Assembly: GCA_964549615.1 (NCBI GenBank)
Contig: CAZJVP010000018.1
Location: forward strand, 1 to 64,000
Length of the DNA stretch: 64,000 bases
Reading direction: 5' to 3'
Source of the DNA: an uncultured Thermococci archaeon
GTDB taxonomy: Archaea > CAYQAE01 > CAYVLA01
In this document: piece after piece, positions 23,753 through 45,727 of the stretch
How the letters are laid out: each line of letters begins with the position of its first letter
Numbering within the stretch: the first letter of the stretch is position 1
Position numbers and translations under genes: made by a program
Notes under the pieces: model-generated
What the model saw: only the letters and a program-made list of their open reading frames with translations
Database searches by the model: none
Told to the model about the DNA's origin: nothing

Positions 23753-23781
23753 AAGGCGTCGGTTTAATCGGGTGATCTCCC

Positions 23782-24618
23782 ATGGTTCATGTAGTCATCA
23801 TGAAGTGCGGCAACATCGCAACGTCCACCATGGTCGACCTTCTCCTGGACGAGATAGCCGCAAGAGATGATCTTCAAGTGACCGTGGTCGGTTCCGGCCC
23901 AAAGATGACTCCCGCCGAAACTACGCGGATAGCTGGGTACATCCCATCCACAAACCCCGACATCCTCGTGGTGTGCGGTCCAAATGCTGCCTCGCCGGGC
24001 ATGACGAGGCTTCGGGAGGCGCTCGCCGATGTCAAAGCGCCGAAGATAGTGATAGGAGATGGCCCTAGCAAGAAGGTGAAGGACAAGCTGGAACAGGAGG
24101 GTTTTGGATATCTGATAATGGAGGCGGATCCTCTCATCGGGGCAAGGCGCGAGTTCCTAGATCCGACCGAAATGGCGATCTTCAACGCGGATGTGATTAG
24201 GGTCTTGGCCACGGTGGGCAGCTTGAGAACCGTGCAGGAGGAACTGGACAAGGCCATACAGTCAGTGAAGAATGGAAAGGTGTATCTTCCCCGGTTGGTG
24301 GTATCCGAGTCCCGTTCCCTGGCAAAGGCCGGTTTTTCCAATCCCTATGCGAGGGCAAAGGCAGCGGTTGCCTTCCGACTTGCCGATCTTGCAGCCCAGG
24401 TCAACTATAACGCCTGCTTCGTCGAGAAGGACGTCAAGAAGTACATCAGGCTCGCGGCGGCAGCACATGAAGCAGTGAGGACGGCTGCCCAATTGGCGGA
24501 CGAGGCCCGCGAGATCGAGAAGGCATCGGACAAGGTCCTGAGAACCCCCCACTCTAGGAAGGGCAGGATTCTTCGGAAAAGGGCTTTGCTGGCCAAACCC
24601 CAGGAGGCGGTCCAGTGA
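23782..24618 (+). CDS. mtd: F420-dependent methylene-H4MPT dehydrogenase
   Basis: KCGNIATS, DEIAARDD, GSGPKM, DPLIGARREFLDPTEMA, FSNPYARAKA, RTPH. Confidence 0.95.
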   Translation: MVHVVIMKCGNIATSTMVDLLLDEIAARDDLQVTVVGSGPKMTPAETTRIAGYIPSTNPDILVVCGPNAASPGMTRLREALADVKAPKIVIGDGPSKKVKDKLEQEGFGYLIMEADPLIGARREFLDPTEMAIFNADVIRVLATVGSLRTVQEELDKAIQSVKNGKVYLPRLVVSESRSLAKAGFSNPYARAKAAVAFRLADLAAQVNYNACFVEKDVKKYIRLAAAAHEAVRTAAQLADEAREIEKASDKVLRTPHSRKGRILRKRALLAKPQEAVQ

Positions 24619-25517
24619 ACGGGGAAACAGTTGAGGACACGTTTGCGGAAGCCTTTCGGTCGTACTACTCCCGCGTGTTGATCACCGGCTCAACATCCGA
24701 GCTGGCTAGGACCGCCGCGGTCACCTCAACAGGATTCGCCACGTCGGCACTAGGATGCGGCGTTGAGGCTGGTATCGAGACTGAGCTTCCGGAGAAACAA
24801 GCGCCGGATGGCAGGCCCGGCATCATCTGCCAGTACCACATCTGGAGCAGGGACCCCAAGAAGATGTATGGAGTCCTGCTCGCTAGGATCGGGCACTGCG
24901 TTCTGACCGCCCCGAGTACCGCGGTTTTTGATGCTACGGCAAACCCCTTGGCCAAGATCGATCTGGGTGTGAAGCTCGGGTTCTTCGGCGATGGCTACGA
25001 GGAAGAAGGAGAGATCGGGGGCAGAAAGGTCATCATCATACCCATCATGGGGGGAGAGTTCAAGATCGAGAGAGAGGTGGGAATGAGCAAGGGCATCTCA
25101 GGGGGAAACCTGTGGTTCATGGGGTCCTCCCAGTCTGCTGCAATCGAGGCGGCACGGTCAGCCACAGCGGCAATAAGCGGAGTAAAGGGCGTCATCACCC
25201 CCTTCCCGGGCGGGGTCTGCAGCTCCGGATCCAAGGTGGGAGCCGAGAGGTACAAGTTCCTAGCCAACTCAACCAATCATCCCTATTGCCCAACGCTGAG
25301 GGGCAAGATCCGGGATTCCAAGGTTCCGAAGGGCGTGGAGTCCATTATGGAAGTAGTCATCAACGGAACCAGCCTCAAGTCTGTCCAAAGAGCAATGAAG
25401 GTGGGCATCGATGCAGCCCTTGGGACGAAGGGGCTCATCAGGATCTCCGCAGGGAACTTCGGCGGAAAACTTGGGCGGTTCAAGATCCATTTAAGAGACT
25501 TGCAGGATGCGCCGTGA
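24615..25517 (+). CDS. ftr: Formylmethanofuran:H4MPT formyltransferase
   Basis: EDTFAEAF, PDGRPG, FFGDG, PFPGG..SSGSK, ISAGNFGGKLG. Confidence 0.96.
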   Translation: MNGETVEDTFAEAFRSYYSRVLITGSTSELARTAAVTSTGFATSALGCGVEAGIETELPEKQAPDGRPGIICQYHIWSRDPKKMYGVLLARIGHCVLTAPSTAVFDATANPLAKIDLGVKLGFFGDGYEEEGEIGGRKVIIIPIMGGEFKIEREVGMSKGISGGNLWFMGSSQSAAIEAARSATAAISGVKGVITPFPGGVCSSGSKVGAERYKFLANSTNHPYCPTLRGKIRDSKVPKGVESIMEVVINGTSLKSVQRAMKVGIDAALGTKGLIRISAGNFGGKLGRFKIHLRDLQDAP

Positions 25518-25553
25518 CCATCGCCCCCGCAAACCCTTGAACGAGGCAAGCCA

Positions 25554-27002
25554 ATGCAGCACAGGCAAGAGCTCGAGAAGGTCCTCGATATCGACAAACT
25601 GAAGTACTGCTACGAATGCGGCATCTGCACATCCAGCTGCCCGGTCGCAGAGTTGATGCCAAGAGTGTACAATCCACGAAGCCTGCTCCAACAGATCCCA
25701 CTCGATTTCCAGCAGGCCACGAAGAGCAAGGAGATCTGGCTTTGCGCATGGTGCTACCGGTGCTACAGGAGGTGTCCGCAAGGGCTTAGAGTTCCGGATA
25801 TTCTCTTGCTGCTCAAGGACACTGCAGCCCAGAGCGGATCCCTTGAAGGATTCAAAGAGGCATTGGAGGTGATCCTCAGAGAGGTCCCTTTGCCCTTGGC
25901 CTGCCTATACGCTTGCTTCAACCCTGCGCGAGGCAACGTGGAGAAGCCGGGGACAATCGAGGCCGTGAGGCACCTGGTGGCCAACTACCGGCACCTGACA
26001 AGAGGGGAGAAAGCCGACATCGCCAGCCCCCGAAAGGAGAGGATAGCCATAGTGGGATCGGGTCCGGCCGGCCTGACCGCCGCCCAGGAGCTCGCGAAGA
26101 AGGGATACTTGGTCACCGTGTTCGAATCGATGCCCAGACCTGGCGGCATGTTGGGTTGGTGCATACCGGCATATAGGTTGCCAAGAGAGGCCGTCGAGGC
26201 TGAGATCCAACGGATAAGGGACCTCGGGGTCGACTTCCGAACCAATGTGACGGTCGGCAAAGACCTGTCCATCGACGACATCTTGAAGGAAGGCTACGAT
26301 GCCTTGTTCATCGCCATAGGAGCCCAGAAGGTGAGAAAGCTCGGCATTGAGGGCGAGAACCTCCGCGGGGTCCTTGATGCCCTTGACTTCCTGAGGAAGG
26401 CAGGCACAGGAGAGAAGATCGAACTCGGAAACAAGGTTGCGGTGGTTGGTGGCGGAGATGTGGCGATGGATGCAGCCAGGATCGCTAGGGTTGCCCTCCA
26501 TCTTGGAGCAAAGGATGTCACGATACTGTACAGGAGGTCGAGAGACGAGATGCCGGCAAACCCCTGGGAGGTCAAGGAAACCGAGGATGAGGGCGTCAGG
26601 ATCGAGTTCCTGGTTGCGCCCAAGAGGATCCTGGGCAAGGATGGACGCGTTGCGGCCTTGGAGTGCGTTCGCATGAAGCTGGGAAGGCCCGACCAAACCG
26701 GCAGGAGAAGGCCAATACCGATCCAAGGATCTGAGTTCATGATGGAGGTCGACAGCGTGATACCGGCGATAGGCGAAAGCCCAAGCCTCTTTCCGCTCCC
26801 AAAGGGGGTCAGGATCACGAAAAGAAACACCATCGCGGCCGATCCTTTCACCCTCCAGACCGGCGTTCCTGGAATATTTGCCGGAGGCGATGTTGTACGC
26901 GGGCCGTCGACGGTGATCGAGGCCGTGGTGGACGGAAAGAGGGCCGCAGAATCGATTCACCGATACCTGCTAGACAGATCCAAGACGGGCCAAGGTGGTT
27001 GA
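25554..27002 (+). CDS. Fusion of HdrC-type 2x[4Fe-4S] domain to GltD/NfnB/SudA-like FAD-NAD(P)H oxidoreductase
   Basis: CYECGICTSSCP..NPR..IWLCAWCYRCYRRCPQG (HdrC pattern), then IVGSGPAG, GGML..IPAYRLP, GGGDVAMD, YRRS, FAGGD. Confidence 0.88.
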   Translation: MQHRQELEKVLDIDKLKYCYECGICTSSCPVAELMPRVYNPRSLLQQIPLDFQQATKSKEIWLCAWCYRCYRRCPQGLRVPDILLLLKDTAAQSGSLEGFKEALEVILREVPLPLACLYACFNPARGNVEKPGTIEAVRHLVANYRHLTRGEKADIASPRKERIAIVGSGPAGLTAAQELAKKGYLVTVFESMPRPGGMLGWCIPAYRLPREAVEAEIQRIRDLGVDFRTNVTVGKDLSIDDILKEGYDALFIAIGAQKVRKLGIEGENLRGVLDALDFLRKAGTGEKIELGNKVAVVGGGDVAMDAARIARVALHLGAKDVTILYRRSRDEMPANPWEVKETEDEGVRIEFLVAPKRILGKDGRVAALECVRMKLGRPDQTGRRRPIPIQGSEFMMEVDSVIPAIGESPSLFPLPKGVRITKRNTIAADPFTLQTGVPGIFAGGDVVRGPSTVIEAVVDGKRAAESIHRYLLDRSKTGQGG

Positions 27003-29454
27003 GATGCCGGAAGCGGAAGCCATCGGAAAGACGATCACGGAAACCGCCCTGCCTGTCCGAGACGATGAGATTAGAGTAGGCGTCTATGTCTGCCATTGTG
27101 GACTGAATATCGCGGGCTCCGTTGACTGCGAGGAAGTGGCAAGATTCGCCGGGGGCCTTCCGGATGTCGTCGTTTCAAGGAGTAGCCGTTACACCTGCTC
27201 GGACCAGGGACAGGAACTGATCAAGAGCGACATCAAGGAACACAAGCTGAACCGCGTTGTGGTTGCGTCCTGCACACCTCGTCTCCACGAACCCACCTTC
27301 AGAAAGGCGTGTGAGGAAGCCGGATTGAACAAGTATCTCTTTGAGATGGCAAACATCAGAGAGCACTGCAGCTGGATACATCTCTACGAGAAGGAAAAGG
27401 CCACTGAGAAGGCCAAGGACCTTGTCAGGATGGCCGTGGCCAAGGCCCGATTTCTGCAACCACAGGTTGAGCTTGAAGTCCCGGTCACAAGGCGGACACT
27501 CGTTGTGGGCGGGGGAGTCGCAGGCATCCAGGCGGCCCTAGATCTCGCAGATGCTGGTTACCAGGTGTACCTCGTGGAGAAGAACCCGAGCATCGGCGGC
27601 AGGATGGCGCAGATAGACAAGACCTTCCCGACCATGGACTGTTCCATCTGCATCCTCGCGCCCAAGATGTCGGAAGCGGGAAGGCATCCAAACATCGAGT
27701 TGATGACGAATAGCGAGGTCATTGAGGTAAGTGGTTACATCGGCAATTTCAAGGTAAAGGTATTGAAGAAGCCAAGATACGTGGTGAAATGTAACAGCTG
27801 TGGTGAGTGCGCCAACGTATGTCCCGTCCAGGTCCCAAACGAGTTCGACGCAAACTTCGCCCCAAGAAAGGCCATCTACATCCCCTTTGCACAAGCGGTC
27901 CCGTCCACGTACATAGTGGACATGGATCACTGCATAAGGTGTTACGAGTGCATCAAGGCCTGCAAGGTCGCCGGTGCGGGGGCCATCGACTTCAATCAGA
28001 AGCCCGAAGTGGAGGAACGTGAGGTCGGCACGATCATCGTGGCAACGGGCGCGGATGTGTACGATCCCAGTTCGCTCACCGAGTATGGGTACGGGAGATA
28101 CGCAAACGTGATAACGTCGCTTGAGTTCGAACGCCTGATAAATGCCGGGGGCCCATCGGGCGGCCGGCTGATCCGGCCCAGCGATGGCAAGATCCCGGAG
28201 TCGGTGGCCTTCATCCAGTGTATTGGTTCGCGATCGGACAGGAGTGGTCACCTGTACTGTAGCAACGTCTGCTGTATGAACACGATCAAGGATGCCTTGC
28301 TCATAAAGGAGCACTGGCCGGAAACGAAGATCTACGTCTTCTATCTCGACATAAGGGCCTTCGGCAAAGGGTTCGAGGACCTGTTCAAGAGGGCAAAGAA
28401 GGAGGGCGTCATTTTCATCCGCGGCCTGCCGGCCGAGATCTACGAGAACGGAAGGAAGAACCTGATTCTCACCGGCGAGAACACTTTGAGGGGGGAGATC
28501 TATAACATCGAGGTCGGACTAGTAACACTTTCGGTCGGGCTTAGGCCCGGACAGGACGCGGATATCGTCCAACGGCTCTTCAACCTATCCAGGACCCCGG
28601 ATGGCTTCTTCATGGAGGCGCATCCGAAGCTTCGTCCAGTGGATGCTCCAACGGGAGGCATATTCTTCGCGGGGTGCGCGGAATCCCCAAAGGACATCAA
28701 GGACTCCGTGACCCAAGCCAGCGCGGCGGCGGCGAGGGCAAACATCCTCATGGCTAAGGGAAGCGTGACGGTCGAAGCAATAACGCCCACTCTGATTCGG
28801 GAGAACTGCAAGGCCTGTGGGCTTTGCGCCAAAGTCTGCCCCTACAACGCCATTCGCGTCGACAAGGAGACGAAAACGACGGAGGTGATCGACGCGGCCT
28901 GCGCGGGATGCGGAACCTGCGGCGCAGAGTGCCCCTCGGGTGCGTTGGTCATGCGCCATTTCACGGACCAACAGATCATGGCCCAGATCGACGCAGCGAC
29001 GGAAGATGACGCTGGAAAGAAGGTCATTGCCTTCTGCTGCAACTGGTGCTCATATGCAGCAGCGGATTTTGCTGGAGTCAGCAGGATGCAGCAACCCACT
29101 CTTGCCCGCGTGATCCGGACCATGTGCTCGGGAAGGGTGACAAGCAAGTTCATCGAACGGGCTTTTTCTAGAGGCGCAGGTGCTGTCCTGGTTTCCGGTT
29201 GCCACCCGGGTGACTGTCACTACATCAATGCCAACTACCAGACCCAGAAGCGAGTCGAGAGATTCTGGAAGACGATGGAAAAGAAAGGATTGGATAGGAG
29301 GCGGCTCCAGCTAGCCTGGTTCAGCGCTGCGGAGGGCGAGGCCTTTGCAAGGAAAATCAAGGAAATGCAGGAGATCGTGGAGAGCCTGACTCCCGACGAG
29401 ATCGAGAGATCGAAGGCGGTCTGGAAGACGGCTGTCGAGGCTGAGTCATCTTGA
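26995..29454 (+). CDS. hdrA: Heterodisulfide reductase subunit A fused to MvhD [2Fe-2S] domain
   Basis: GVYVCHCG, NIREHCSW, GGGVAG, KTFPTMDCSIC, EFERL, QCIGSR, CSNVCCM..IK, two ferredoxin inserts; C-terminal FCCNWCSY, MCSGR, GCHPGDCHY (MvhD). Confidence 0.95.
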   Translation: MVEMPEAEAIGKTITETALPVRDDEIRVGVYVCHCGLNIAGSVDCEEVARFAGGLPDVVVSRSSRYTCSDQGQELIKSDIKEHKLNRVVVASCTPRLHEPTFRKACEEAGLNKYLFEMANIREHCSWIHLYEKEKATEKAKDLVRMAVAKARFLQPQVELEVPVTRRTLVVGGGVAGIQAALDLADAGYQVYLVEKNPSIGGRMAQIDKTFPTMDCSICILAPKMSEAGRHPNIELMTNSEVIEVSGYIGNFKVKVLKKPRYVVKCNSCGECANVCPVQVPNEFDANFAPRKAIYIPFAQAVPSTYIVDMDHCIRCYECIKACKVAGAGAIDFNQKPEVEEREVGTIIVATGADVYDPSSLTEYGYGRYANVITSLEFERLINAGGPSGGRLIRPSDGKIPESVAFIQCIGSRSDRSGHLYCSNVCCMNTIKDALLIKEHWPETKIYVFYLDIRAFGKGFEDLFKRAKKEGVIFIRGLPAEIYENGRKNLILTGENTLRGEIYNIEVGLVTLSVGLRPGQDADIVQRLFNLSRTPDGFFMEAHPKLRPVDAPTGGIFFAGCAESPKDIKDSVTQASAAAARANILMAKGSVTVEAITPTLIRENCKACGLCAKVCPYNAIRVDKETKTTEVIDAACAGCGTCGAECPSGALVMRHFTDQQIMAQIDAATEDDAGKKVIAFCCNWCSYAAADFAGVSRMQQPTLARVIRTMCSGRVTSKFIERAFSRGAGAVLVSGCHPGDCHYINANYQTQKRVERFWKTMEKKGLDRRRLQLAWFSAAEGEAFARKIKEMQEIVESLTPDEIERSKAVWKTAVEAESS

Positions 29455-31211
29455 AGTGCATCCTGAACACCGGCAGGACATTGGAACAGGGCGTGGCATT
29501 GGAGGCTGGCAAGACATCGCAGCAGTACTATGAGGCTACCGCTCTGGCCTACGTCAACGATGACGACATGGAGGATCTGGGGTTGGAAGAGAATATGCCA
29601 ATGGAGATCTCCACGGAGTCTGGGTCGGTTGTCGTAAGATGCAGGAAGGGCTGGATAGACCGGGGCCAGATCTTCATGCCCTGGGGCCCCTGGGCCAACG
29701 CGATCGTGGGTTCCGACACATCGGGGACTGGCATGCCAAGATATAAGGGCGTTGAGGTGGAGGTCAGCCCAACCAACAAGCCGATTACAACGCTCCACGA
29801 TCTCTTCGTTGAGAAGGACAGGATGGTCAGAGCCGTCAGCGAGATTCCGAGATACTCCCCAAGCGCAACTACCCAGCTCGAGTCCAAGGGGCAGGGCGAG
29901 AGTGTTCAAACCACAATCAGCAACGTGGTCTGTCCTTTCTGTGGCTGCCTGTGTGATGATGTGGAGATCGTGACTGAGAGGGGAAGAATAGTAGATGCGG
30001 TAGTGGGTTGTGAGCTTTCCAAGAGCAGGTTCCTGAATTGGGACAAAGATCGAGTCAAACCGGCGATCAGGAAGGATGGGAAACTTGTCGAAGTGACCCT
30101 TGACAAGGCTATAGAAAAGGCGGCCGAGATTCTCAGAAAGGCCGACTACCCTCTGATCTACGGCCTGAGTTCAACGGAAGTGGACGCTCAGAGGGCAGCC
30201 ATCAACCTTGCTGAGATGATCGGTGCAACAATCGATAACACAACCTCGGTATGCCACGGTCCAACCACGCTTGCTGCCCAAGATTGCGGTGTGCCGGAGA
30301 TGACATTGGGGGAAGTGAGAAACAGAGCCGACTTAGTCATCTACTGGGGATGCAATCCCGCGGAGGCACACATCCGACACGTAACGCGGTACGCCACGAC
30401 TCCGAAGGGCATGTTCATCAAAGGCGGAAGAAAAGACCGATTCGTGATCCACGTGGACGTTAGGGAAACGAAGACCGCGAAGGCTGACCCCAGGTGGCAC
30501 TTCGTCTACCAACTCGCCAACATGTTCGTGAAAGTTAGACCCGGCCAGGACTACGAGCTGTTCTCGGCCCTAAGGGCCAGGTTAAGGGGACATGAGGTGG
30601 GTGAAGTTGCCGGGGTGCCCGCAAGCACTATCGACGACCTCGTCAACCGAATGAAGACGTGCAAGTTCGGAGTCATATTCTTTGGTCTGGGTCTCACAAT
30701 GTCGAGCGGCCGGCACATGAACATCGATGCAGTCCTGCGACTGGTCAGAGACCTGAATGACCACACCAAGTTCACGATCCTCCCGATGAGGGGCCACCAC
30801 AACGTAGCGGGGATCAACCATGTGATGCTGTGGACCACGGGATACCCCTATGCCGTCAACTTCTCGCGAGGCTATCCCATCTACAACCCGGGCGAGTTCT
30901 CGGCCGTGGACGTGCTTGCCCGAGGGGAATGCGATGCAGCCTTGATAGTCGCATCCGACCCGGTCGCTCACTTCCCGGTCCAGGCCGTCAAGCATCTTGC
31001 TGGAATCCCAACGATCGTAGTCGACCCGAAGATGAGCATGACCTCGCTGATGGCCGAGGTTCTGATCCCATCCGCGATAGCAGGAATCGAGTGCGACGGA
31101 ACCGCCTATCGAATGGATGGCGTGCCCATCAGGCTCAGGAAGGTCGTCGATTCAGCATTCGAGCCAGACAAGCTGATCTTGGATAGGATCATCGAGAGGG
31201 TCCGGAGTTGA
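29451..31211 (+). CDS. fwdB: Formylmethanofuran dehydrogenase subunit D-B fusion (Mo/W-bisPGD)
   Basis: N-terminal LNTGRT..QG...PWGPWAN..GTGMP.YKG (FwdD); then CPFCGCLCDD, SVCHGP (Cys, not Sec), WGCNP, MRGHHN, GTAYRMDGV (FwdB). Confidence 0.95.
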   Translation: MKCILNTGRTLEQGVALEAGKTSQQYYEATALAYVNDDDMEDLGLEENMPMEISTESGSVVVRCRKGWIDRGQIFMPWGPWANAIVGSDTSGTGMPRYKGVEVEVSPTNKPITTLHDLFVEKDRMVRAVSEIPRYSPSATTQLESKGQGESVQTTISNVVCPFCGCLCDDVEIVTERGRIVDAVVGCELSKSRFLNWDKDRVKPAIRKDGKLVEVTLDKAIEKAAEILRKADYPLIYGLSSTEVDAQRAAINLAEMIGATIDNTTSVCHGPTTLAAQDCGVPEMTLGEVRNRADLVIYWGCNPAEAHIRHVTRYATTPKGMFIKGGRKDRFVIHVDVRETKTAKADPRWHFVYQLANMFVKVRPGQDYELFSALRARLRGHEVGEVAGVPASTIDDLVNRMKTCKFGVIFFGLGLTMSSGRHMNIDAVLRLVRDLNDHTKFTILPMRGHHNVAGINHVMLWTTGYPYAVNFSRGYPIYNPGEFSAVDVLARGECDAALIVASDPVAHFPVQAVKHLAGIPTIVVDPKMSMTSLMAEVLIPSAIAGIECDGTAYRMDGVPIRLRKVVDSAFEPDKLILDRIIERVRS

Positions 31212-32836
31212 GTGTCGTCACAAGCAGTCTTGTCATAAGGAACGGCACCGTCTACGACCCGGCCAATGGGATAGACGGGGAGAAGATGGACCTGTTCATC
31301 GAGAACGGAAAGATGGTCGAGGAAACCAGAGGCAGGGAGATAGACGCATCAGGATTGGTTGTGTTCCCCGGGGGGATCGATATCCATTCCCACATCGCAG
31401 GGTCCAAGGTCAACCTCGGCAGGCTGTTCAGGCCGGAGGACCACAGGAAGGACCATGTCAGCAGGACCCACCTTACAAGAAGCGGCGTGGGATACTCGGT
31501 TCCGACGACCTTTGTGACCGGTTACAGATATGCCAAGCTCGGCTACACAACTATCATGGAGGCTGCAAGCCCTCCCCTGATGACGAGGCATACTCACGAG
31601 GAACTGAATGACACCCCCATCGTCGACAAAGCGTGCTACACTCTCATGGGAAACAATCACTTCGTCATGGACTACATCAAGAAGGGAGAGATGGAGAAAC
31701 TCCGAGATTACGTGGCTTGGCTCCTGAACGCCACGAAGGGATATGCGGTGAAGATAGTCAACCCCGGCGGCGTGGAGAACTGGAAGTGGGGCAGAAATGT
31801 GGAAAGCATAGATGACAAGGTCGACAACTATGAGGTCACCCCCAGAGAGATACTGGTTGGCCTCTCTAGGGTCAACGACGACCTTGGTCTGCCGCATGCG
31901 ATACACGTTCACGCCAACAATCTGGGTTCGCCCGGCAATTACGAGACCACCCTGCAGACCATGGACGCTGTGAAAGGCAGAATGCATCTGACCCATCTGC
32001 AGTTCCACTCGTACGCGGGAGACAGCTGGGCCAAATTCAGCTCCGGCGTCGACGAGGTGGTCAAATCAGTGGATAAACACGACAACATCACATGCGATAT
32101 GGGCCAGGTGATCTTCGGCGACACTACCACGATGACGGCCGACGGCCCGTGGCAACACCGCCTCTATGGGCTGACGGGCAACAAGTGGTTCAATGCTGAT
32201 GTAGAAATGGAGACCGGAGCGGGGGTCGTTCCCTACTACTTCACCAGGAAGAGTCCCGTTAACTCGGTTCAGTGGGCAATAGGTCTGGAGATTGCCCTCA
32301 TGGTCAAAGATCCTTGGAAGGTCTGCCTCACGACCGACCATCCCAACGGGGGACCCTTCTATATGTACCCAAAGGTCATCTCGTGGCTCATGAGCAAGAA
32401 GGCGCGGGACCAAACCCTAGGATCGATCCACAAGGCCGCCTCCGCTAGAACTGCCCTGCCCAGCCTCGATAGGGAGTACTCCCTCTACGACATCGCCATC
32501 GTCACGAGGGCAGCGCAGGCCCGGGCCCTGGGGCTGAAGAACAAGGGGCATTTGGGGGTTGGAGCCGACGCCGACGTGGCGATCTATGAGTTCGCCGAGG
32601 ACCACGTACAGCGCTCCTTCTCGAAAACGCGGTACACAATCAAGGAGGGAAGGGTCGTCGCTGTGAACGGAGAGATCGTCGACTCGTTTCAAGGAAGAAC
32701 CTTTTGGGCTGATGCTCAGGGCGGGGTGACCGATGAGGTCAGGGAAGCATTTGCGAAATACTACACGGTCTCGTTTGAGAATTATCCCGTTCAGGACGAT
32801 TATCTACCCAGAGCCGAGGCCGTTCCATGTGGCTAG
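31208..32836 (+). CDS. fwdA: Formylmethanofuran dehydrogenase subunit A
   Basis: DIHSHIAG, KIVNPGG, HANNLG.PGN, TTDHPNGGPF. Confidence 0.96.
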   Translation: MSVVTSSLVIRNGTVYDPANGIDGEKMDLFIENGKMVEETRGREIDASGLVVFPGGIDIHSHIAGSKVNLGRLFRPEDHRKDHVSRTHLTRSGVGYSVPTTFVTGYRYAKLGYTTIMEAASPPLMTRHTHEELNDTPIVDKACYTLMGNNHFVMDYIKKGEMEKLRDYVAWLLNATKGYAVKIVNPGGVENWKWGRNVESIDDKVDNYEVTPREILVGLSRVNDDLGLPHAIHVHANNLGSPGNYETTLQTMDAVKGRMHLTHLQFHSYAGDSWAKFSSGVDEVVKSVDKHDNITCDMGQVIFGDTTTMTADGPWQHRLYGLTGNKWFNADVEMETGAGVVPYYFTRKSPVNSVQWAIGLEIALMVKDPWKVCLTTDHPNGGPFYMYPKVISWLMSKKARDQTLGSIHKAASARTALPSLDREYSLYDIAIVTRAAQARALGLKNKGHLGVGADADVAIYEFAEDHVQRSFSKTRYTIKEGRVVAVNGEIVDSFQGRTFWADAQGGVTDEVREAFAKYYTVSFENYPVQDDYLPRAEAVPCG

Positions 32837-32903
32837 ATCAGGACAGGGCATCAGTTTCATCGTGGGACACGGGTTCGAGCAGCAATCCGCGTGAGGGAGC
32901 ACC

Positions 32904-33716
32904 GTGATCAGGCTTAGACCGAGACAGGAATCGAGAATCCCAGTGGAGGCGGAATGCATATCGCCCGACGCCTTCTCGGGGAAGTCGGCAGCGCAAGTGG
33001 AGGATATGAAGATCCTATGGGGCAACAAGACGAAGAGGTTGGTCGATCTCTTCGAGGTCGTTGAGGATCCGGCAGAGCCTAACGAGATAGTGGTGGACGG
33101 GGACGTGAGATTCGTCAAGCATATCGGCGCCAAGATGAGCATGGGAAGGGTGATCGTGAACGGCGATGCGGGCATGCACCTCGGCCGGGGGATGGCGGGG
33201 GGCGAGATAATCGTAAACGGAGATGCTGGGGACTGGCTGGGAACGGAGATGGTCGGCGGGCTTATCAGAGTTAAGGGAAACGTGGGAAACTTGGCTGGGT
33301 CTGCCTACCGGGGCTCCAAGTCCGGCATGAAGGGTGGGATGATCGTCATCGAGGGGGGTGCAGGCGATGAGCTGGGCGAGTTGATGGAGGGTGGAACGAT
33401 AGCCGTGAAAGGCAACGTGCAATCATTTGCGGGGGCGCTGATGTCGGGCGGGGCGATCGTTTGCTTCGGGGGTCTGGGCGGGAGACCGGGCGCTGGGATG
33501 ACCAACGGAACCCTACTTGCCTTCAGCCAGCCAAGGCTTCTTCCGACGTTCAGATACGCGCGAACGTACAAACCGACTTTCATCAAGCCTATCCTTGAGG
33601 AGCTTAGGAAGCAAGGCCTCCCAGTGGAAGACCGGCAGATAGAAGGCTTGTACGACGCGTACGAGGGAGATCTTGCATGCGACGGGAAGGGGAAGATCCT
33701 CGTTTGGAAAGACTAG
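32904..33716 (+). CDS. fwdC: Formylmethanofuran dehydrogenase subunit C
   Basis: GXGXG beta-helix repeats (G..M.GG.I.V.G), AYRG..GM.GG. Confidence 0.95.
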   Translation: MIRLRPRQESRIPVEAECISPDAFSGKSAAQVEDMKILWGNKTKRLVDLFEVVEDPAEPNEIVVDGDVRFVKHIGAKMSMGRVIVNGDAGMHLGRGMAGGEIIVNGDAGDWLGTEMVGGLIRVKGNVGNLAGSAYRGSKSGMKGGMIVIEGGAGDELGELMEGGTIAVKGNVQSFAGALMSGGAIVCFGGLGGRPGAGMTNGTLLAFSQPRLLPTFRYARTYKPTFIKPILEELRKQGLPVEDRQIEGLYDAYEGDLACDGKGKILVWKD

Positions 33717-34757: not shown

Positions 34758-37490
34758 CTAATCCAGTACCAAGGTTGCCTTGACTAGGGAGGGGTCCACG
34801 CTCTGGATGGTGAATTCCATCTTGCGACAGATGTGTATCATCCTTTCGTTCTCTGCACTTATCAAGCCCCAGATGGAGGCCAGCTTCTTGTCTTCGGCGA
34901 TTCCGATCATCTTATCCACTAGCTTGGTCCCCAAGCCCAGTCCCTGCCAAGGATCTCCGACGAGCACGGAAATTTCAGCCGACTTTCCGTCGGGCCCCAC
35001 GAGCAGCCTCGCCATGCCGATGATCTTCCTCTTGCCCTTTTCGACCAACTCTGCAACGATGGCCATCTCACGGCGATAGTCTATGTTCGTGAGGCGAACC
35101 AGATCCTCATGCTCTATTTGTTTTAAGGCTCCGAAGAACCCGAACCTGATCGACTGGGGTGACAATGCCTTGAGCAGCTTCCACAGCAGGGGCTCGTCCT
35201 CGGGCCTGACAGGTCGAAGGGTCACGGGCCGCCCGTCTCTGAGCGCCCATTGCTCAATGTATTTTCCGGGGTACGGTTGGATGACCAGATGGGAGCGTGG
35301 CTCAACCCCCGAGATTGCGAGATCCTTGTCAATAACGATCCTTGCGTCTAGGGCGATGAATTCCCGGCCGACGACGGCCAACGGGTTGATATCGACCTCG
35401 CGGATCTCAGGAAAGTCGATGATCATCTGCGAGAAGCGGACTAGATACTCCTCAAGATAGTCCAGCTTGACGGGGGGTTTGCTCCGGTAGCCTTGAAGCA
35501 GCGAGTAGACCTTCGTCTGTTCCATCAGCCTCCTAGCTAGAACGCGGTTCAGCGGAGGCAAGCCCACGGCTATGTCTCGATAGATCTGCACGCCCGTTCC
35601 CCCTTGGCCGAACATTATCGCAGGGCCAAACGTCGGGTCCGTTTTGCACCCAAGAATAAGCTCATAATCCACGCCCGTCACCATCTTCTGGACGGTGACC
35701 CCAAACAACCGGGCGGAAGGATCGTGCTTCTTGGCATTGGCCATAATCTCGTCGAACGCGTTTCTGACCTCCGCGCACGAATTCAGCCCCAGCACAACGC
35801 CGCCACAGTCGCTCTTGTAGGTGATGTCGGGGGAGTAGATCTTCAGAACCACGGGGAATCCTATGCTTGACGCCACGTTCATGGCGGCGCTCGCGCTCTC
35901 AGCGACGCGCGTCTCAACAACCGGAATGCCGTAGGTCTGCAGGAACTTCTTGGACTCCTCCTCCGTGAGTATGTGTCGTCCGCTGCGGGCGACCCTAACC
36001 ACCATAGCCTTGAGATGGTTCCTTGGAGGGATCGCTTCAACCGGCAACTCCTCGGGGGTCTGGTATAGCTGCTCCAAGTTCCTGGAGTATTGGTACATGT
36101 ACATGTAGGACTTCACGGCCCTCTCCGGGGACGAGTAGGCTGGTATGCGTTTCTCTCGGAGGAGCTCAAGTCCCGCCTCGACCTTCCTTTTTCCGAGAAA
36201 AGATGCAAGAATCGGTTTCCTGCCTGTTCTCGGTAGCTCTGTAATCGCCCTTGCAACGTCATCGGAGGATGCCGCCCCTTGCGGCGTGTATATCACCAGA
36301 ATTCCGTCGACGTTCTTGTCTCCGATACAAGCCACAATCGCGTTGCGGTATCGTTGGCCGTCCGCATCCCCTCCGATGTCGACGGGATTTTTCTTGCTAG
36401 CATGGGAGGGCAGCACCCTTGATAGAGTCCCCACAGTCTCTCTTGAGAGCTGTGGTAGTTCCCCGCCTCTTTCAAGCAACACGTCGGCGGCCATGATGCC
36501 AGGGCCGCCGGCGTTCGTTATTATCGCGAGCCTAGAGCCTCTTGGAGGTCTCTGCGTCGCCAAGATCTCCGAGACGTTGAAGAGATCCTCTATCTCATCT
36601 ACCCTTGTGATGCCAACCCTCTGGAAGGCCGCGTCAAAGACCTTGTTCTCATCGGTCAAAGACCCCGTGTGCGATACAGCGGTATGAGATGCTGCGGCCT
36701 CTGCGCTCTGAGCGAACTTGCCCGACTTGATTGCCACGATGGGCTTGGTCCTTGAAAAGGCCCTTGAGGCGCTGAGGAAGTTTGGCGCGTCCGTGACCGA
36801 TTCTATGTACATGAGGATGCTTCGGGTCTCGGGGTCCTGCCCGAAGAAATCGATCAGATCCCCGAAGTTGATGTCGGCCATGTTCCCCAACGATACGAAG
36901 CTGCTGAATCCAACATTCGTATCCATGGACCAGTCCAGAATTGCCGAACCCAAGGCACCGCTTTGCGAGATCAATGCGATGTTCCCCATTCTAGGCATCT
37001 GGTCCGCGAAACTTGCGTTCAACCCTATCGAGGGGACGATCAGGCCGAGGCAGTTTGGGCCGAGAATCCTCATGCCATACCTGCGTCCCGCGTCGATGAC
37101 CTGGTTCTCCAACGCCGCGCCCGAGGGACCAACTTCCCTGAAGCCTGCCGACACTATGATGATCGCAGGAATCCCAGCCTCCCCACAATCCTCCACGATC
37201 GCTGGAACCGTCGGAGCAGGGGTGGCGATGACCGCCAGGTCGACGGGACTTGCAAGCTCTTTGACGGTGGCGTGGCAACTGATTCCCAAGACAACGCTTC
37301 GATTTGGGTTAATCGGGTGCACCTCGCCACGATATCCCTTGATCAGGTTCTCCATTATCGTGCGTCCGACGGAGCCGCTTTCTTCGCTGGCCCCGACGAC
37401 TGCGATGGTATCCGGCCTAAACATTTTCTGGAGGTTCTCCACTCCCATGGGGGTGATCTCCAGCCCCGCGCTCATGGGCTTTCTGCCCAT
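34758..37490 (-). CDS. Pat/YfiQ-type protein: NDP-forming acyl-CoA synthetase alpha+beta domains fused to C-terminal GNAT
   Basis: GPNCLG, SQSGA, SHTGSL, NAGGPG, NPVD, ATP-grasp, DINPL; GNAT LRPVRPEDE...WQGLGLG. Confidence 0.93.
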   Translation of the reverse strand: MGRKPMSAGLEITPMGVENLQKMFRPDTIAVVGASEESGSVGRTIMENLIKGYRGEVHPINPNRSVVLGISCHATVKELASPVDLAVIATPAPTVPAIVEDCGEAGIPAIIIVSAGFREVGPSGAALENQVIDAGRRYGMRILGPNCLGLIVPSIGLNASFADQMPRMGNIALISQSGALGSAILDWSMDTNVGFSSFVSLGNMADINFGDLIDFFGQDPETRSILMYIESVTDAPNFLSASRAFSRTKPIVAIKSGKFAQSAEAAASHTAVSHTGSLTDENKVFDAAFQRVGITRVDEIEDLFNVSEILATQRPPRGSRLAIITNAGGPGIMAADVLLERGGELPQLSRETVGTLSRVLPSHASKKNPVDIGGDADGQRYRNAIVACIGDKNVDGILVIYTPQGAASSDDVARAITELPRTGRKPILASFLGKRKVEAGLELLREKRIPAYSSPERAVKSYMYMYQYSRNLEQLYQTPEELPVEAIPPRNHLKAMVVRVARSGRHILTEEESKKFLQTYGIPVVETRVAESASAAMNVASSIGFPVVLKIYSPDITYKSDCGGVVLGLNSCAEVRNAFDEIMANAKKHDPSARLFGVTVQKMVTGVDYELILGCKTDPTFGPAIMFGQGGTGVQIYRDIAVGLPPLNRVLARRLMEQTKVYSLLQGYRSKPPVKLDYLEEYLVRFSQMIIDFPEIREVDINPLAVVGREFIALDARIVIDKDLAISGVEPRSHLVIQPYPGKYIEQWALRDGRPVTLRPVRPEDEPLLWKLLKALSPQSIRFGFFGALKQIEHEDLVRLTNIDYRREMAIVAELVEKGKRKIIGMARLLVGPDGKSAEISVLVGDPWQGLGLGTKLVDKMIGIAEDKKLASIWGLISAENERMIHICRKMEFTIQSVDPSLVKATLVLD

Positions 37491-37540
37491 ATTAATCTAT
37501 CACGAGGCCGACGTGATGCCATGAAAGGGAAAGTGCGTTG

Positions 37541-37660
37541 GTCCTTGCACCTGGACCAATCCATCGGACAGCTGACAAGCCGGGGCCCTATCCCGGGTCT
37601 TCGCTGGGCTTCCTTCACGAACAAGCCATCGATGTTGCCATGTCTCCTGTCTGCAACATT
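37541..37660 (-). pseudogene. Probable degenerate GNAT acetyltransferase fragment
   Basis: Minus strand reads VADRRHGNIDGLFVKEAQRRPGIGPRLVSCPMDWSRCKD, resembling GNAT beta4/motif A. An in-frame TGA lies upstream at 37669-37667. Confidence 0.4.
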
Positions 37661-37865
37661 CTTTAGTCAAAACCGCCGAAAACCCGGCAGGAGATCGTTC
37701 CACCATCCTACGGCATCCTTCAGCTAGGATTCTCTCGGGTGCCTGACAATACTGGGGGGTGCTCCCGGACCGGCCGGCGTCGAACTACGCTTTTTGCCGA
37801 TGATGAGTTGGCCTTTTGCCGATCAATTTAAAAGGATCGGGCGCGAAGACCTGAAAGGTCGGGCC

Positions 37866-38087
37866 GTGACGAGGGTCAAGCTGTGTCTTGATGCGGGTTG
37901 TTCAAGGCAGATCCTCTTGGAGGACGGTCGCTGCATAGTCGAGATCAAGGACAAATGCACGGCCGTCCGCGTCCCCCGGGACTTCAAACTGAAATCTGAG
38001 CAGATAGCCCGTGAAACCAAGAGGCAGATTATCCTCTCGGGTGAGCTGTTCAAGGGCGTCAGGGAAGGCTGCGATCTCGAGATCTGA
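37866..38087 (+). CDS. Small hypothetical protein (73 aa, several Cys)
   Basis: GTG start about 35 nt after TTTAAAAG; protein-like composition. Confidence 0.5.
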   Translation: MTRVKLCLDAGCSRQILLEDGRCIVEIKDKCTAVRVPRDFKLKSEQIARETKRQIILSGELFKGVREGCDLEI

Positions 38088-38114
38088 CGAGGCCAACTGG
38101 CAATGGCCGGATCG

Positions 38115-38803
38115 AGCCATCTCCCTGATCGCACCCAAAACGCTGCGCATCGAATCCTCCACGCGTATCACGAACACGCAGCGAAGAGCCCAAGCCTAGT
38201 TCCTGCATTCATGAGGGCTGGCAAGTTCGGAAGGTGATGCAACCGCTCACTGCGTTGCGGAATTGCTTCCCAACCTTGGCCAATCTGGAGCCCGGATCAT
38301 GCCCGCGATCGGCCTAGGGGACCTCATCTGCGTGGGTCTCTCGATGACCCCCCCGCCGTCATCCCTTCACGGGTATCTCCTCTCGAGAACGTGCATCGCG
38401 TTGACAGACAGCTTGAGCCCCTGTGTCACCTCAATGGGGGCATTTGACCGCGGAGGCGCGCACCCTTCCCAGGAAAGCGAGCGCCAAGCACACCGCGATC
38501 AGGGCCACGGGCATCTGCCTGCCCTATGTCCGTCCTTCGCTGTCCGCTGCGAATAGATTGGGTAGGCCTTGCAACATCGGCAAGGTTGGTCCTCGATCAG
38601 GACTCTATGGCACACCGTCATGAACACCCTCAACGTCCGATATGCACCCAGGGAACCGCTGGCGAATCCTTGCAACAACCTCGGCTGCCACTCTCTGCGC
38701 CAACTATGCGTCCTTCCTCCCGGCGGGGACCATTGGCTTGTCGCTGGCGCCGATGATCCTTGCCTCGTCGAAGCGACCAATTGCCGTTCTGTTCTCGGAT
38801 CAG
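38115..38803 (-). pseudogene. nrdJ: Decayed N-terminal part of an ATP-cone ribonucleotide reductase (class II / NrdJ-like)
   Basis: Minus-strand pieces in correct order: FDEARIIGA..LAQRVAAEVVARIRQRF..DVEGVHD..VLIED..ADVA..Y (ATP cone); LKLSVNAMHVLERRYP*RDDGGGVIERPTQM; LPNLPALMNAGTRLGLFAAC/FVIRVEDSMRSVLGAIREMA. Internal stops and frameshifts are present (TGA 38369-38367; 1-nt loss near 38174). Confidence 0.85.
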
Positions 38804-38890
38804 GGCTCCCGTTTTTTTCCCGGGTCACCTCAGATCGAGTCTACTAAGATATAAAGCCCAAAGGTGTTTAGGGATGCAGCCGGCGTCTGG

Positions 38891-39721
38891 ATGGATCTGC
38901 TCTTCGTCTACTCAGGAAACTACGGCGAGAGGGTCATCGGGAACCTCATGAACTATCACAGGTTCTGCACCGTCTGCGATCCCGCTTGCAGCAGCTGCAG
39001 GTTTGGCCAGTTCAACTGGTCCTCCGAGATAAGACAGGCCCTTATCGTGCCTGGGCCCAGTGATGCCCTGCCGCCGCAGGAAGGGTCCTCCCTGGCAATC
39101 AATGCGCCAGAGGCCGAGGTGGCATTTCTAATCGACGTGCATCCAGAGGTCATGTTGGATTTTGTTGAATCCCTTCGGGGCACCCGGGTAAGGGCGGTCA
39201 TCGTGCCGATTGAAAGACCCGGGATCGGGGCCGGGCTCCTGAGGCAGGTCCGTTCCATCCTTGACGAGCTCAAGGTGGAGCTGGCCTGTCCAAAACCCTT
39301 CTGTTCCCTCACTCCGCACGATTCCTCGCCAACGATCAACGCCTTCATCGAGAAGTTCAGAATCGGAAGGCCGCTCATTGAAGTCGAGACTGAAACCGCA
39401 GCATCCGGCGAGCATACAATCTCCAAGGCACGTGTCCTAAGGAGTTCACCTTGTGGTGCGACCTGGTACATCTGCCGTAAGCTTGTGGGAACCCGGGTTG
39501 AGGCAGAGGCAGTTGCGGAGGTGGTTGCGCGCGCTCACCACACCTACCCCTGCACAGCCTCCATGGTCATGGACCGGGAGACCGGAGACACATTCCTTCA
39601 CGCGGGCGGGCGCATCGCCCGGGAGAGCGTGTTTGAGGCGCTGCGCCGTAACCTCGCGCAGAGGGGCAGGTATGCGGAGGCACAGCGCATGGCGGACTCG
39701 GCCTTGAAGAAGACGCCCTAA
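38891..39721 (+). CDS. DUF166-family protein with extra CxxCxxxCxxC motif
   Basis: YGERVIGN, CTVCDPACSSC, PKPFCSL, RSSPCGATW, HHTYPCTASM; TATA-like GATATAAA at about 38849-38856. Confidence 0.8.
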   Translation: MDLLFVYSGNYGERVIGNLMNYHRFCTVCDPACSSCRFGQFNWSSEIRQALIVPGPSDALPPQEGSSLAINAPEAEVAFLIDVHPEVMLDFVESLRGTRVRAVIVPIERPGIGAGLLRQVRSILDELKVELACPKPFCSLTPHDSSPTINAFIEKFRIGRPLIEVETETAASGEHTISKARVLRSSPCGATWYICRKLVGTRVEAEAVAEVVARAHHTYPCTASMVMDRETGDTFLHAGGRIARESVFEALRRNLAQRGRYAEAQRMADSALKKTP

Positions 39722-41854: not shown

Positions 41855-41872
41855 CTTGCACCCTCACCTTCT

Positions 41873-43824: not shown

Positions 43825-43829
43825 GGGCC

Positions 43830-45200: not shown

Positions 45201-45724
45201 TACTCCTCACCCCTAAGAAGGCCGGCAAGCCTCTGCATCTGCGCATGCCACGTAGCCGGGACCAGGTTCGAGAAGGAATACCTCGCGTTAGGCTGGTAGT
45301 GTCTTCCAAGGCTAACGGTTCCTACCCCGCGCCCAAAGTGCTTCATCAATGAGAACATCTGCGACGCGTAGTAGTAATCCATGCCTAGAAAGATGACCAG
45401 ATCGTAGGCGCCTTTTCCATCGAACCCCTGCCAGTCGGGGTCCCTTAACCTGTCCATTACCTCCAGCACATTCATGTACACGTCCGGCTTCACCCCACTG
45501 GCGACCGCCATCAGCGGCCTGGTTCTCGGTGAGGCGACGAGGCTTGAACTCGGTATTGCCCTGACGACGGATAGCATCGCCCCGTCATCTGAGATCTCCG
45601 GCCCCAAGACGGTTAGGATGCGCCTCGCCCTGGATATGATCTTGCTCATCCTGTCCGCGTCAGCCACCACGGCCCTTACGTGCCCGGGATCATTTCCAAG
45701 AAACCAAGGCGTCGACTCCGACAT
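45200..45724 (-). CDS. cdhB: ACDS epsilon subunit
   Basis: LRDPDWQGFDGKGAYDLVIFLG..YY, HYQPNARYSFSN. Confidence 0.94.
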   Translation of the reverse strand: MSESTPWFLGNDPGHVRAVVADADRMSKIISRARRILTVLGPEISDDGAMLSVVRAIPSSSLVASPRTRPLMAVASGVKPDVYMNVLEVMDRLRDPDWQGFDGKGAYDLVIFLGMDYYYASQMFSLMKHFGRGVGTVSLGRHYQPNARYSFSNLVPATWHAQMQRLAGLLRGEE

Positions 45725-45727
45725 GGA

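Follow-up and report, generated by a model that had tools for sequence, protein, structure and literature searches.

The window analysed here (the whole stretch of 64,000 nucleotides, positions 1 to 64,000 of contig CAZJVP010000018.1 from an uncultured Thermococci archaeon) contains, at 23782–33716 on the forward strand, seven co-oriented open reading frames (ORFs): mtd, ftr, a gene encoding a 482-residue subunit, hdrA::mvhD, fwdD::fwdB, fwdA and fwdC. The original prediction, made by a model from the letters of the DNA, had described them as one operon in which an HdrC::GltD protein is followed by HdrA::MvhD and FwdD::FwdB, and all the ORFs were located as claimed. The last five genes are referred to below as the five-gene cassette. 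On balance, we favour the view that the product of this cassette is a flavin electron-bifurcating (or confurcating) complex that is built on HdrA, does without HdrB, is linked to NADP(H) and is wired to formyl-methanofuran dehydrogenase (Fwd); this reading draws on domain content, conservation, gene order and the absence of HdrB and Mcr. The features of the operon are as follows.

23782–24618, +: mtd, F420-dependent methylene-tetrahydromethanopterin (H4MPT) dehydrogenase, the first gene of the operon (PF01993, E 2e-112; NF002162, 372.6 bits against a cut-off of 297)
24615–25517, +: ftr, formyl-methanofuran (formyl-MFR):H4MPT formyltransferase (TIGR03119, E 4e-106, 354.8 bits against a cut-off of 292.6)
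25554–27002, +: 482-residue subunit, whole gene
25554–25868, +: HdrC-type N-terminal domain of the 482-residue subunit (HdrC chains of the PDB, E 1e-17 to 3e-11, phmmer)
25869–27002, +: NfnB/GltD-type FAD and NADP(H) domain of the 482-residue subunit (9n5u_A, E 1e-96; 4ylf_B, E 1e-87; 5jca_L, E 6e-85)
26995–29454, +: hdrA::mvhD, whole gene (NF040770 'HdrA2', 1244.9 bits against a cut-off of 1100; FlpD/MvhD at residues 677–798)
26995–29004 (start possibly the ATG at 27004), +: HdrA core (5odc_A, E 1e-261 over residues 24–671)
29005–29454, +: MvhD domain ([2Fe-2S]), C-terminal in HdrA (PF02662, E 3e-46; 5odc_D, E 2e-39)
29451–31211, +: fwdD::fwdB, pterin-binding CO2-reducing subunit (NF042908 for FwdD, residues 1–120; TIGR03129, residues 158–584, 567 bits against a cut-off of 328)
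31208–32836, +: fwdA, amidohydrolase-type subunit forming formyl-MFR (TIGR03121, 802.9 bits against a cut-off of 392.75)
32904–33716, +: fwdC (TIGR03122, 270.4 bits against a cut-off of 130.65)

Four overlapping junctions had been reported. Three of them are certain, at 4 nt each (GTGA for mtd/ftr, TTGA for hdrA/fwdDB and TTGA for fwdDB/fwdA); the fourth, between the gene for the 482-residue subunit and hdrA, hinges on the hdrA start codon, with an overlap of 8 nt for a GTG start at 26995 and a distance of 1 nt for an ATG start at 27004. The ATG start yields an HdrA::MvhD of 816 residues, the form found in the protein collection. The gaps between ftr and the gene for the 482-residue subunit and between fwdA and fwdC measure 36 and 67 nt, respectively. 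At the other end of the operon, just 27 nt (23755–23781) lie between the predicted mtd start and a divergent ABC-transporter ATPase gene; one of these two starts has probably been called too far upstream, because 27 nt is too short for two archaeal promoters. The catalytic subunits A, B, C and D of Fwd are all present, the FwdD match (NF042908, residues 1–120, E 7e-33) being below the cut-off of the full-length model. The FwdB motifs CPFCGCLC (residues 161–168) and CHGP (residues 268–271) are conserved in 20 homologues.

The 482-residue subunit and its predicted place on HdrA

In searches of the PDB, residues 12–98 of the 482-residue subunit match HdrC chains (9sfi_E, E 1e-17; 5odc_C, E 9e-17, over residues 28–111 of the 184 of HdrC) and residues 107–474 match NfnB-type chains (E 1e-97 to 1e-85). 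The FAD and NAD(P)H Rossmann domains of the NfnB/GltD small-subunit family are present (PRK12771, E 3e-108). The head domain contains two complete CX2CX2CX3CP motifs (residues 19–30 and 64–75), enough for two [4Fe-4S] clusters, and all eight of its cysteines are invariant across 30 homologues. The body carries the motifs GSGPAG (168–173; FAD), GGGDVAMD (299–306) and YRRS (326–329), and both the FAD motif and the GGGxxA...YRRS site are conserved in the homologues. A basic YRR in a dinucleotide site is a sign of NADP(H) use. The GXGXXA and YRRS motifs of the dinucleotide site thus point to NADP(H), GXGXXA being the rule for NADP(H) as applied by Lyu et al. (2025; PMC12054007).

The original prediction called this protein an HdrC::GltD fusion. 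An HdrC-type and an NfnB/GltD-type part are indeed both present, but the alignment of cysteine motifs with the canonical NfnB of the same genome (39% identity) does not fit a plain fusion. The second head motif (64–75) aligns with the first cysteine motif of that NfnB, and the second NfnB motif is degenerate, with C117 and C121 remaining and a gap of seven residues; the subunit is therefore described more aptly as an NfnB with its Fe-S head remodelled into an HdrC-type di-cluster domain than as two proteins joined end to end. Fer4_20 is absent among its Pfam matches, and both paralogues in the genome, the canonical NfnB beside NfnA (contig C48) and a HoxF::NfnB protein (contig C52), carry an ordinary Fer4_20 head. 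When the 105-residue head was searched against 1.84 billion cluster representatives, 2197 matches were obtained at E ≤ 0.001, 336 at ≤ 1e-10 and 2 at ≤ 1e-30; the best were full-length fusions and fragments, followed mostly by HdrC-sized proteins of 130–230 residues (E 1e-13 to 1e-21). No full-length HdrC is present: beyond the matched stretch the remainder of the protein is NfnB-type, and the C-terminal part of HdrC that clasps HdrB is missing. An AlphaFold2 model of the subunit has a mean predicted local distance difference test score (pLDDT) of 87 and a predicted template modelling score (pTM) of 0.88, and its best Foldseek matches have template modelling (TM) scores of 0.66–0.69, led by NfnI-L (5jca_L, TM 0.69). 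Metagenomes yielded more than 7,000 scored homologues for this subunit, and likewise for HdrA::MvhD.

The HdrA core is colinear with 5odc_A from end to end and has no large insertion, so that the GltD domain sits on the neighbouring polypeptide and not inside HdrA. Together with the cluster motifs, this match agrees with an HdrA of thioredoxin-reductase fold that holds FAD and [4Fe-4S] clusters. Mean column identity of HdrA::MvhD across 26 homologues is 82%, and the invariant columns include the cluster motifs, a DCSIC pair, EFER (377–380), CCMNTIK (426–432) and the MvhD cysteines. EFER and CCM..IK, which had been singled out from the sequence alone, were thus both found and are invariant; we take them to belong to the bifurcating FAD site. 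The DCSIC pair matches by position Cys202 and Cys205, which lie between the MvhD cluster and the flavin in solved complexes (PMC13580544). On these grounds, HdrA::MvhD looks like a functional bifurcating HdrA.

Docking was modelled with full-length HdrA::MvhD (816 residues, 26-row alignment) and residues 1–110 of the 482-residue subunit (30-row alignment). The interaction score (ipSAE) was 0.67 (0.67, 0.69 and 0.66 in three runs), all three controls gave 0.00, contact agreement was at least 94% and the pLDDT of the partners was at least 79; 58 of 80 solved complexes attain the mark used, as do 2 of 110 mismatched pairs. The HdrC-type domain is thus predicted to dock on HdrA, as the original prediction had supposed. 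The contacts involve HdrA residues 360, 406, 410–414, 417, 448, 474–478 and 490–499 and head-domain residues 15–42 and 73–77, which include the first cluster motif, adjoining the cysteine-rich stretch 406–417 of HdrA. We take the HdrA contacts at 406–417, 448, 474–478 and 490–499 to be the HA4 region. The HdrC-type head is therefore predicted to bind HdrA at the canonical position of HdrC.

Distribution of the cassette and of its two-gene core

A survey of 401 genomes with the 482-residue protein as query (E ≤ 1e-120), in a sample that seems poor in the phylum holding most homologues, returned four matching genomes: the window's own genome (G000), its congener G001, and G300 and G320, two of the 17 genomes of another phylum. 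G001 has the identical seven-gene order, with an HdrA core 82% identical. The same five-gene order is found in G300 and G320 (HdrA core 76–78%, FwdA 71% identical), where it is preceded by a second set, mtd-ftr-[152-residue protein with FeS and 2x4Fe4S units]-fwdD-fwdB-fwdA-fwdC, and followed by mch. A member of the window's own family without HdrA, G002, has mtd-ftr-small ferredoxin-like gene-fwdDBAC, with Fwd proteins 36–48% identical to those of the window. A seven-row FwdA tree, in which G002 has a long branch, joins the cassette copies from both phyla (93/97) and separates them from G002 and from the first set of G300 and G320. As judged from gene order and this tree, the cassette behaves as a unit that appears to have been added beside a ferredoxin-served Fwd in G300 and G320 and to have replaced it in G000 and G001.

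No gene for a ferredoxin or polyferredoxin lies between or after the fwd genes of the window, and the only match in the window's own genome to the Fwd-linked ferredoxin subunit of G300 lies in cdhD. Because the cassette Fwd is encoded without the ferredoxin subunit of stand-alone Fwd operons, the ferredoxin domains of HdrA may serve Fwd directly; among the genomic data, this is the best hint of such direct service.

The two-gene core is more widespread. A second survey covered 401 genomes sampled from the phylum in which a genome with Cren7 had been located; ten of them matched and nine loci were taken, G432 being left out for a match cut by a contig end. The gene for the 482-residue subunit is directly followed by hdrA::mvhD in all nine (HdrA core 70.5–75.6% identical). 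With the four genomes above, the pair thus stands side by side on the same strand at every one of 13 loci, which span three phylum-level groups. The arrangement that the original prediction proposed therefore proved to be conserved, with the five-gene order in four genomes of two phyla and the two-gene adjacency in the nine further loci. Downstream of the core, six of these nine loci carry genes for a 2-oxoacid:ferredoxin oxidoreductase (OFOR; delta-alpha-beta-gamma) and three carry a polyferredoxin of 316–327 residues. On this gene-order evidence, the two-gene module appears portable and not tied to Fwd, and its putative low-potential partner varies yet is always present: Fwd in four genomes, OFOR in six of the nine loci and polyferredoxin in three.

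The lists of the top 120 homologues of the 482-residue protein and of HdrA::MvhD share 20 contigs by identical nucleotide size, the window's own included; one of them, 2526, is too short for both genes and is probably a chance match, and several measure just 4.9–12.6 kb. Both lists give the name Bathyarchaeaceae to one shared contig, of 108,879 nt. The FwdD::FwdB list shares just four contigs with the HdrA list (the window's own, 93603, 21504 and 100174), and no other contig common to the first two lists, the Bathyarchaeaceae one included, recurs in it, which fits OFOR or polyferredoxin downstream in those carriers. A search of metagenome contigs with the subunit alignment listed 80 loci, all of them paralogues at 36–55% identity and including HdrA proteins with an inserted GltD domain, with no orthologous cassette among the 80. 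A single-sequence search of genome contigs gave just five distant, mostly bacterial NfnB relatives (26–41% identity). On metagenome contigs L026, L035 and L038, the HdrA-core match is directly followed by a GltD-type match, and an MvhD match follows after about 1.3 kb. GltD-type matches were also seen in frames of 1125–1131 residues at loci L137 (G609) and L138 (G585), alongside the separate-subunit module in the same genomes.

Genome content and electron flow

The window's own genome comprises 3.21 Mb on 104 contigs and is 99.46% complete. The CCG domain (PF02754) has no match in it, hence neither HdrB nor HdrD is encoded, and none in the family relatives G001, G002 and G003; the control search was positive in 12 of 14 named genomes. 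This excludes, within the genome itself, an HdrB encoded elsewhere as the true partner of HdrA. McrA was found neither here nor in the five other genomes searched, and the genome has no FdhA or FwdF match above the cut-off (the searches included no model specific for FwdG). The three [NiFe] hydrogenase loci include none of Mvh type adjoining an MvhD. The absence of hdrB, mcr, mvhAG and fwdF/G, which the original prediction had noted for the window, therefore holds and extends to the whole genome as far as CCG domains, McrA, MvhD-linked hydrogenases and above-threshold FwdF are concerned. HdrA, Fwd, Mtd and the MvhD (FlpD) domain each occur once, and Mch, Fno, Ftr, carbon monoxide dehydrogenase/acetyl-CoA synthase (CODH/ACS) and two FrhB-like genes are also present. 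The genome has Mtd, Mch, Ftr, Fwd and CODH/ACS, and the enzyme for the step from methylene- to methyl-H4MPT was not identified: MetF/MTHFR was not found and Mer scored below its cut-off (98.9 against 348.7 bits).

The hydrogenases are of hox type with HoxF::NfnB, of a three-gene group-3b-like type, and of a membrane group-4/Nuo-like type preceded by a polyferredoxin. In the hox-type operon (C52, 2406–10054; locus L009), one polypeptide of 1022 residues joins the HoxF/NuoF-like subunit to an entire NfnB (Fer4_20 and GltD-type) and would be a second enzyme of this genome joining two bifurcating-flavoprotein families; the HoxU-like subunit (660 residues) carries a molybdopterin-oxidoreductase domain. 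The group-3b-like locus (C3, about 36600–39600; L021) encodes a gamma subunit (FAD/NAD(P) and Fe-S), a small and a large subunit, with no beta gene alongside. On C104, at about 82000–86500 (L022, L108), a 459-residue frame of many 4Fe-4S ferredoxin repeats lies directly upstream of the group-4 [NiFe]/Nuo-like genes (small subunit, large subunit, NuoH-like), one listed hidden Markov model segment spanning a TGA in the neighbouring frame.

The CODH/ACS genes, of archaeal type, lie in the window at 40457–48055, on the strand opposite to the cassette. Cassette and CODH/ACS operon share the window, so that this locus is part of a Wood-Ljungdahl gene set of the H4MPT type. The operon comprises cdhA (45728–48055, −), the epsilon subunit, cdhC, a cooC-like gene and two CdhD-family genes, and it is headed by a gene for an FrhB/FdhB-like Fe-S flavoprotein (48052–49263, −) that overlaps the cdhA start by 4 nt, which hints that electrons enter CODH/ACS by an F420-type or flavin-linked route. 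A second FrhB-like copy, 67% identical, lies on C69 among unrelated genes (ribonucleotide reductase, CobA, restriction enzyme). Between the fwd and cdh operons, a 910-residue protein (34758–37490, −) combines an ADP-forming acetyl-CoA synthetase-type part (CoA-binding, succinyl-CoA-ligase-like, ATP-grasp) with a C-terminal GNAT acetyltransferase, an architecture we take to be Pat-like, and two DUF166 genes (38864–39721, +, and 39732–40472, −) stand tail to tail beside the CODH/ACS operon.

In solved complexes, the flavin receives its electrons from the MvhD cluster; the weakly reducing electron then travels via HA4 towards HdrB, and the strongly reducing electron passes via HA3, HA5 and HA6 to polyferredoxin and then to Fmd (PMC13580544). 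In the complex proposed here, HdrA::MvhD would carry the bifurcating FAD, the HdrC-type head of the 482-residue subunit would occupy the HdrC-binding site of HdrA, and the body of this subunit would act as an NfnB/GltD-type FAD/NADP(H) oxidoreductase. The weakly reducing branch would then end at NADP+/NADPH, replacing the route through HA4, HdrC and HdrB to the heterodisulfide of coenzymes M and B (CoM-S-S-CoB). The original prediction had already placed a pyridine-nucleotide site instead of HdrB at the end of the HdrC arm, and this agrees with the predicted docking, the retention of both head cluster motifs and of the FAD and NADP(H) motifs, and the lack of CCG domains. The strongly reducing branch would feed the FwdDB-A-C encoded downstream or, in other lineages, OFOR (via its ferredoxin subunit) or polyferredoxin. 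The interconversion of CO2 plus methanofuran and formyl-methanofuran would thereby be coupled to NADP+/NADPH without heterodisulfide. A third partner of intermediate potential would exchange electrons with the MvhD domain. When C1 units are oxidized, the complex would run in reverse as a confurcating enzyme, with formyl-MFR and NADPH reducing the third carrier. We infer the physical assembly with Fwd, the use of NADP rather than NAD and the third partner on MvhD.

Standard potentials are -320 mV for NADP+, about -530 mV for CO2/formyl-MFR and about -340 to -380 mV for F420. The first two values call for a donor whose potential is close to -420 mV or more negative, and a couple in this range would be expected on MvhD. 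We infer that H2, formate and reduced ferredoxin qualify and that F420H2 does not, being uphill by about +30 kJ/mol; in the CO2-reducing direction, the candidates would be H2, via one of the [NiFe] hydrogenases of the genome, or reduced ferredoxin. F420H2 as donor with NADP+ as co-acceptor was accordingly set aside on thermodynamic grounds. Fwd as donor on the MvhD arm was set aside too, since no sensible acceptor would then remain for the low-potential arm.

Several observations weigh against an NADP(H)-linked, Fwd-coupled bifurcating complex. The third redox partner needed for true bifurcation is encoded in none of the 13 loci, and no donor of Mvh or Fdh type adjoins an MvhD in the window's own genome. 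No clue to a third partner was seen upstream in the carrier locus L143 (a diaminopentanoate-dehydrogenase-like protein and a 5-oxoprolinase) or among the neighbours of the C69 FrhB-like gene. The docking pass may reflect memory of, or likeness to, the solved HdrA–HdrC complexes (5ODC, 7BKB, 8RVU), it carries no information on Fwd, and the models place no cofactors and hence give no Fe-S-to-flavin distances. The link to Fwd is drawn from gene order in only two lineages (four genomes and the contigs 93603 and 100174, for which size serves as a proxy), and neither Fwd nor Mtd or Ftr was found within the fetched flanks of the nine other carrier loci. CCG proteins are encoded elsewhere in G300, in G320 and in all five further carriers searched of the nine, so that, strictly, the data establish independence of HdrB for no carriers beyond the window's own family. 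Of six CCG loci retrieved from G300 and G320, all have an HdrC-type match and four also have an HdrA paralogue at 42–44% identity. The assignment to NADP rather than NAD depends on motifs.

The lack of a third partner would suit a non-bifurcating wire, in which the oxidation of formyl-MFR (or a 2-oxoacid) reduces NADP+ through the clusters and flavin of HdrA, as in a formyl-MFR:NADP+ oxidoreductase comparable to pyruvate:NADP+ oxidoreductase and without energy coupling. Such a reaction would be downhill by about 200 mV according to the standard potentials above, and the related HdrA2 complex also runs a non-bifurcating reaction from ferredoxin to heterodisulfide (Yan et al., 2017; PMC5296606). 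However, HdrA is kept at 70–82% identity across phyla with its cluster, DCSIC and flavin-site motifs invariant, the MvhD domain, which a simple wire would not need, retains all its cysteines at every locus, and the sole Fwd of a genome with CODH/ACS probably has to work in the CO2-reducing direction, which NADPH alone cannot drive. We therefore regard the wire as unlikely. In another arrangement, NADPH would itself be the mid-potential donor, entering through the NfnB-type flavin and the HdrC-type clusters, with one electron delivered to Fwd or OFOR and the other passing through MvhD to an acceptor above about -240 mV. The genome does appear NADPH-centred (group-3b-like hydrogenase, canonical NfnAB, HoxF::NfnB hydrogenase, Fno), and the NfnB flavin bifurcates in Nfn (Buckel and Thauer, 2018). 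Nevertheless, no candidate for a high-potential acceptor was found in it (no HdrB, HdrD or other CCG protein, and no MetF or Mer above the cut-off), and the predicted docking position is that of the weakly reducing output in solved complexes (PMC13580544), which makes NADPH as donor distinctly unlikely.

An F420-linked enzyme resembling HdrA2B2C2 of Methanosarcina acetivorans, in which F420H2 would react with HdrA::MvhD and the F420H2, NADP(H) and Fwd couples would be interconverted, is very unlikely in our view. HdrA::MvhD exceeds the NCBIfam cut-off for HdrA2, the operon opens with an F420-dependent Mtd, and both Fno and two FrhB-like genes are encoded in the genome; HdrA2 itself is reported to interact with ferredoxin as well as F420 (Yan et al., 2017; PMC5296606). 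However, the 13 loci contain no FrhB-like gene, the weak matches to FrhB queries there being ferredoxin motifs only. The standard potentials put the formation of NADPH and formyl-MFR from two F420H2 at the same uphill value of about +30 kJ/mol, and the reverse would need no coupling. It is also conceivable that the adjacency of the two core genes is incidental, the 482-residue protein acting alone or with NfnA as an enzyme of the sulfide-dehydrogenase, Nfn or glutamate-synthase type and HdrA::MvhD acting with other partners. Databases give the homologues generic names ('FAD-dependent oxidoreductase', 'sulfide dehydrogenase subunit alpha', 'glutamate synthase beta subunit-like') and a canonical NfnA exists on C48, but that NfnA adjoins its own canonical NfnB, and no NfnA or GltB partner gene was found in the cassette at any locus examined. 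The constant adjacency and co-orientation across three phylum-level groups, the HdrC-type head that sets the protein apart from its Fer4_20-bearing paralogues, and the docking pass against three null controls render this explanation highly improbable.

The bifurcating, NADP(H)-linked complex could also be seen in a wider frame. Considering the two-gene unit wherever it occurs, it might be a general, self-contained 'booster plug' of archaea that joins NfnB-type and HdrA-type flavins in one complex and uses ordinary reductant of the cytoplasm, NADPH plus electrons at the level of ferredoxin or H2, to feed very low-potential electrons directly to CO2-fixing enzymes (Fwd, a pyruvate/2-oxoacid synthase, or through polyferredoxin), without free ferredoxin or heterodisulfide. 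We consider this extension rather unlikely. If true, non-methanogenic archaea with the H4MPT Wood-Ljungdahl pathway, Bathyarchaeia-named carriers included, would have in this plug their missing device for energy coupling.

Relation to known systems

An open question is how the many uncultured archaea that have the methanogen-type CO2 route but form no methane reach potentials of about -500 mV, and what HdrA does without heterodisulfide. The cassette offers a concrete and testable answer, with an NADP(H) module in place of HdrB, encoded together with enzymes that need low-potential electrons, and it may explain how non-methanogenic microbes power CO2 fixation. The system is compact enough for heterologous expression (two core genes, or five with Fwd). 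If it is confirmed, the annotations 'CoB-CoM heterodisulfide reductase HdrA2' and 'glutamate synthase/sulfide dehydrogenase' will need correction. No description of an HdrC-type::NfnB-type subunit with HdrA::MvhD, or of its link to Fwd or OFOR, was found in the literature searched, which excluded the supplements of PMC12054007, PMC9012536, PMC7886697 and PMC11697101, where such clusters may be listed. A Bathy-6 genome paper places 'MvhD/hdrA' beside 'MvhB' in a list, on which the text consulted does not comment (PMC11697101).

The Mvh/Fdh/Elp-HdrABC-Fmd(Fwd) supercomplexes of methanogens (5ODC, 7BKB, 8RVU, 9SW2-6; PMC13580544) share with the cassette an HdrA core of almost identical architecture, MvhD, an HdrC-type module and Fwd A–D genes alongside. 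Unlike them, the cassette lacks HdrB, the C-terminal half of HdrC, the heterodisulfide site, an Mvh, Fdh or Elp donor and the FmdF/MvhB polyferredoxin or FwdG, and the organism lacks Mcr. HdrA2B2C2 of M. acetivorans resembles it in having an MvhD at the C-terminus of HdrA and in needing no hydrogenase subunit (Yan et al., 2017; PMC5296606), whereas here HdrB2C2 is replaced by the HdrC-type::NfnB-type subunit, and bifurcation driven by F420H2 is implausible as NADP+ is too weak an acceptor.

Nfn-type enzymes (NfnAB, NfnI, Xfn, NfnABC and StnABC; 4YLF, 5JCA, 5VJ7, 9N5U, 9BOV, 8OH5) have the FAD and NADP(H) domains in common with the 482-residue subunit, but the cassette has no NfnA, an HdrC-type head instead of Fer4_20 and a degenerate second NfnB cysteine motif. 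FlxABCD-HdrABC is an NADH-linked bacterial Hdr complex in which the nucleotide enters on the MvhD (FlxD) side. MetFV-HdrABC-MvhD is another NADH-linked bacterial Hdr complex listed in the literature (Buckel and Thauer, 2018). Both bacterial types resemble the cassette in pyridine-nucleotide-linked HdrA bifurcation in non-methanogens, and differ from it in keeping HdrB and HdrC and in having no Fwd partner.

The closest published relatives are HdrA proteins with an inserted GltD/NfnB domain, namely HdrA9-11 of ANME-1 (Chadwick et al., 2022; PMC9012536) and 'type III HdrA' (Lyu, Yu and Lu, 2025; PMC12054007). They too join an NfnB/GltD flavoprotein to HdrA and bring together two flavins of bifurcating families; the survey of 'type III HdrA' concerns methane- and alkane-metabolizing organisms only (PMC12054007). 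In these proteins, the inserted domain lies within HdrA's ferredoxin domain, on the low-potential side, HdrBC is kept (with mvhADG in Bathyarchaeota) and the dinucleotide motif is GXGXXG (NAD), whereas the cassette has a separate subunit, placed on the HdrC side by the docking model, that would replace HdrB and bears the GXGXXA motif (NADP).

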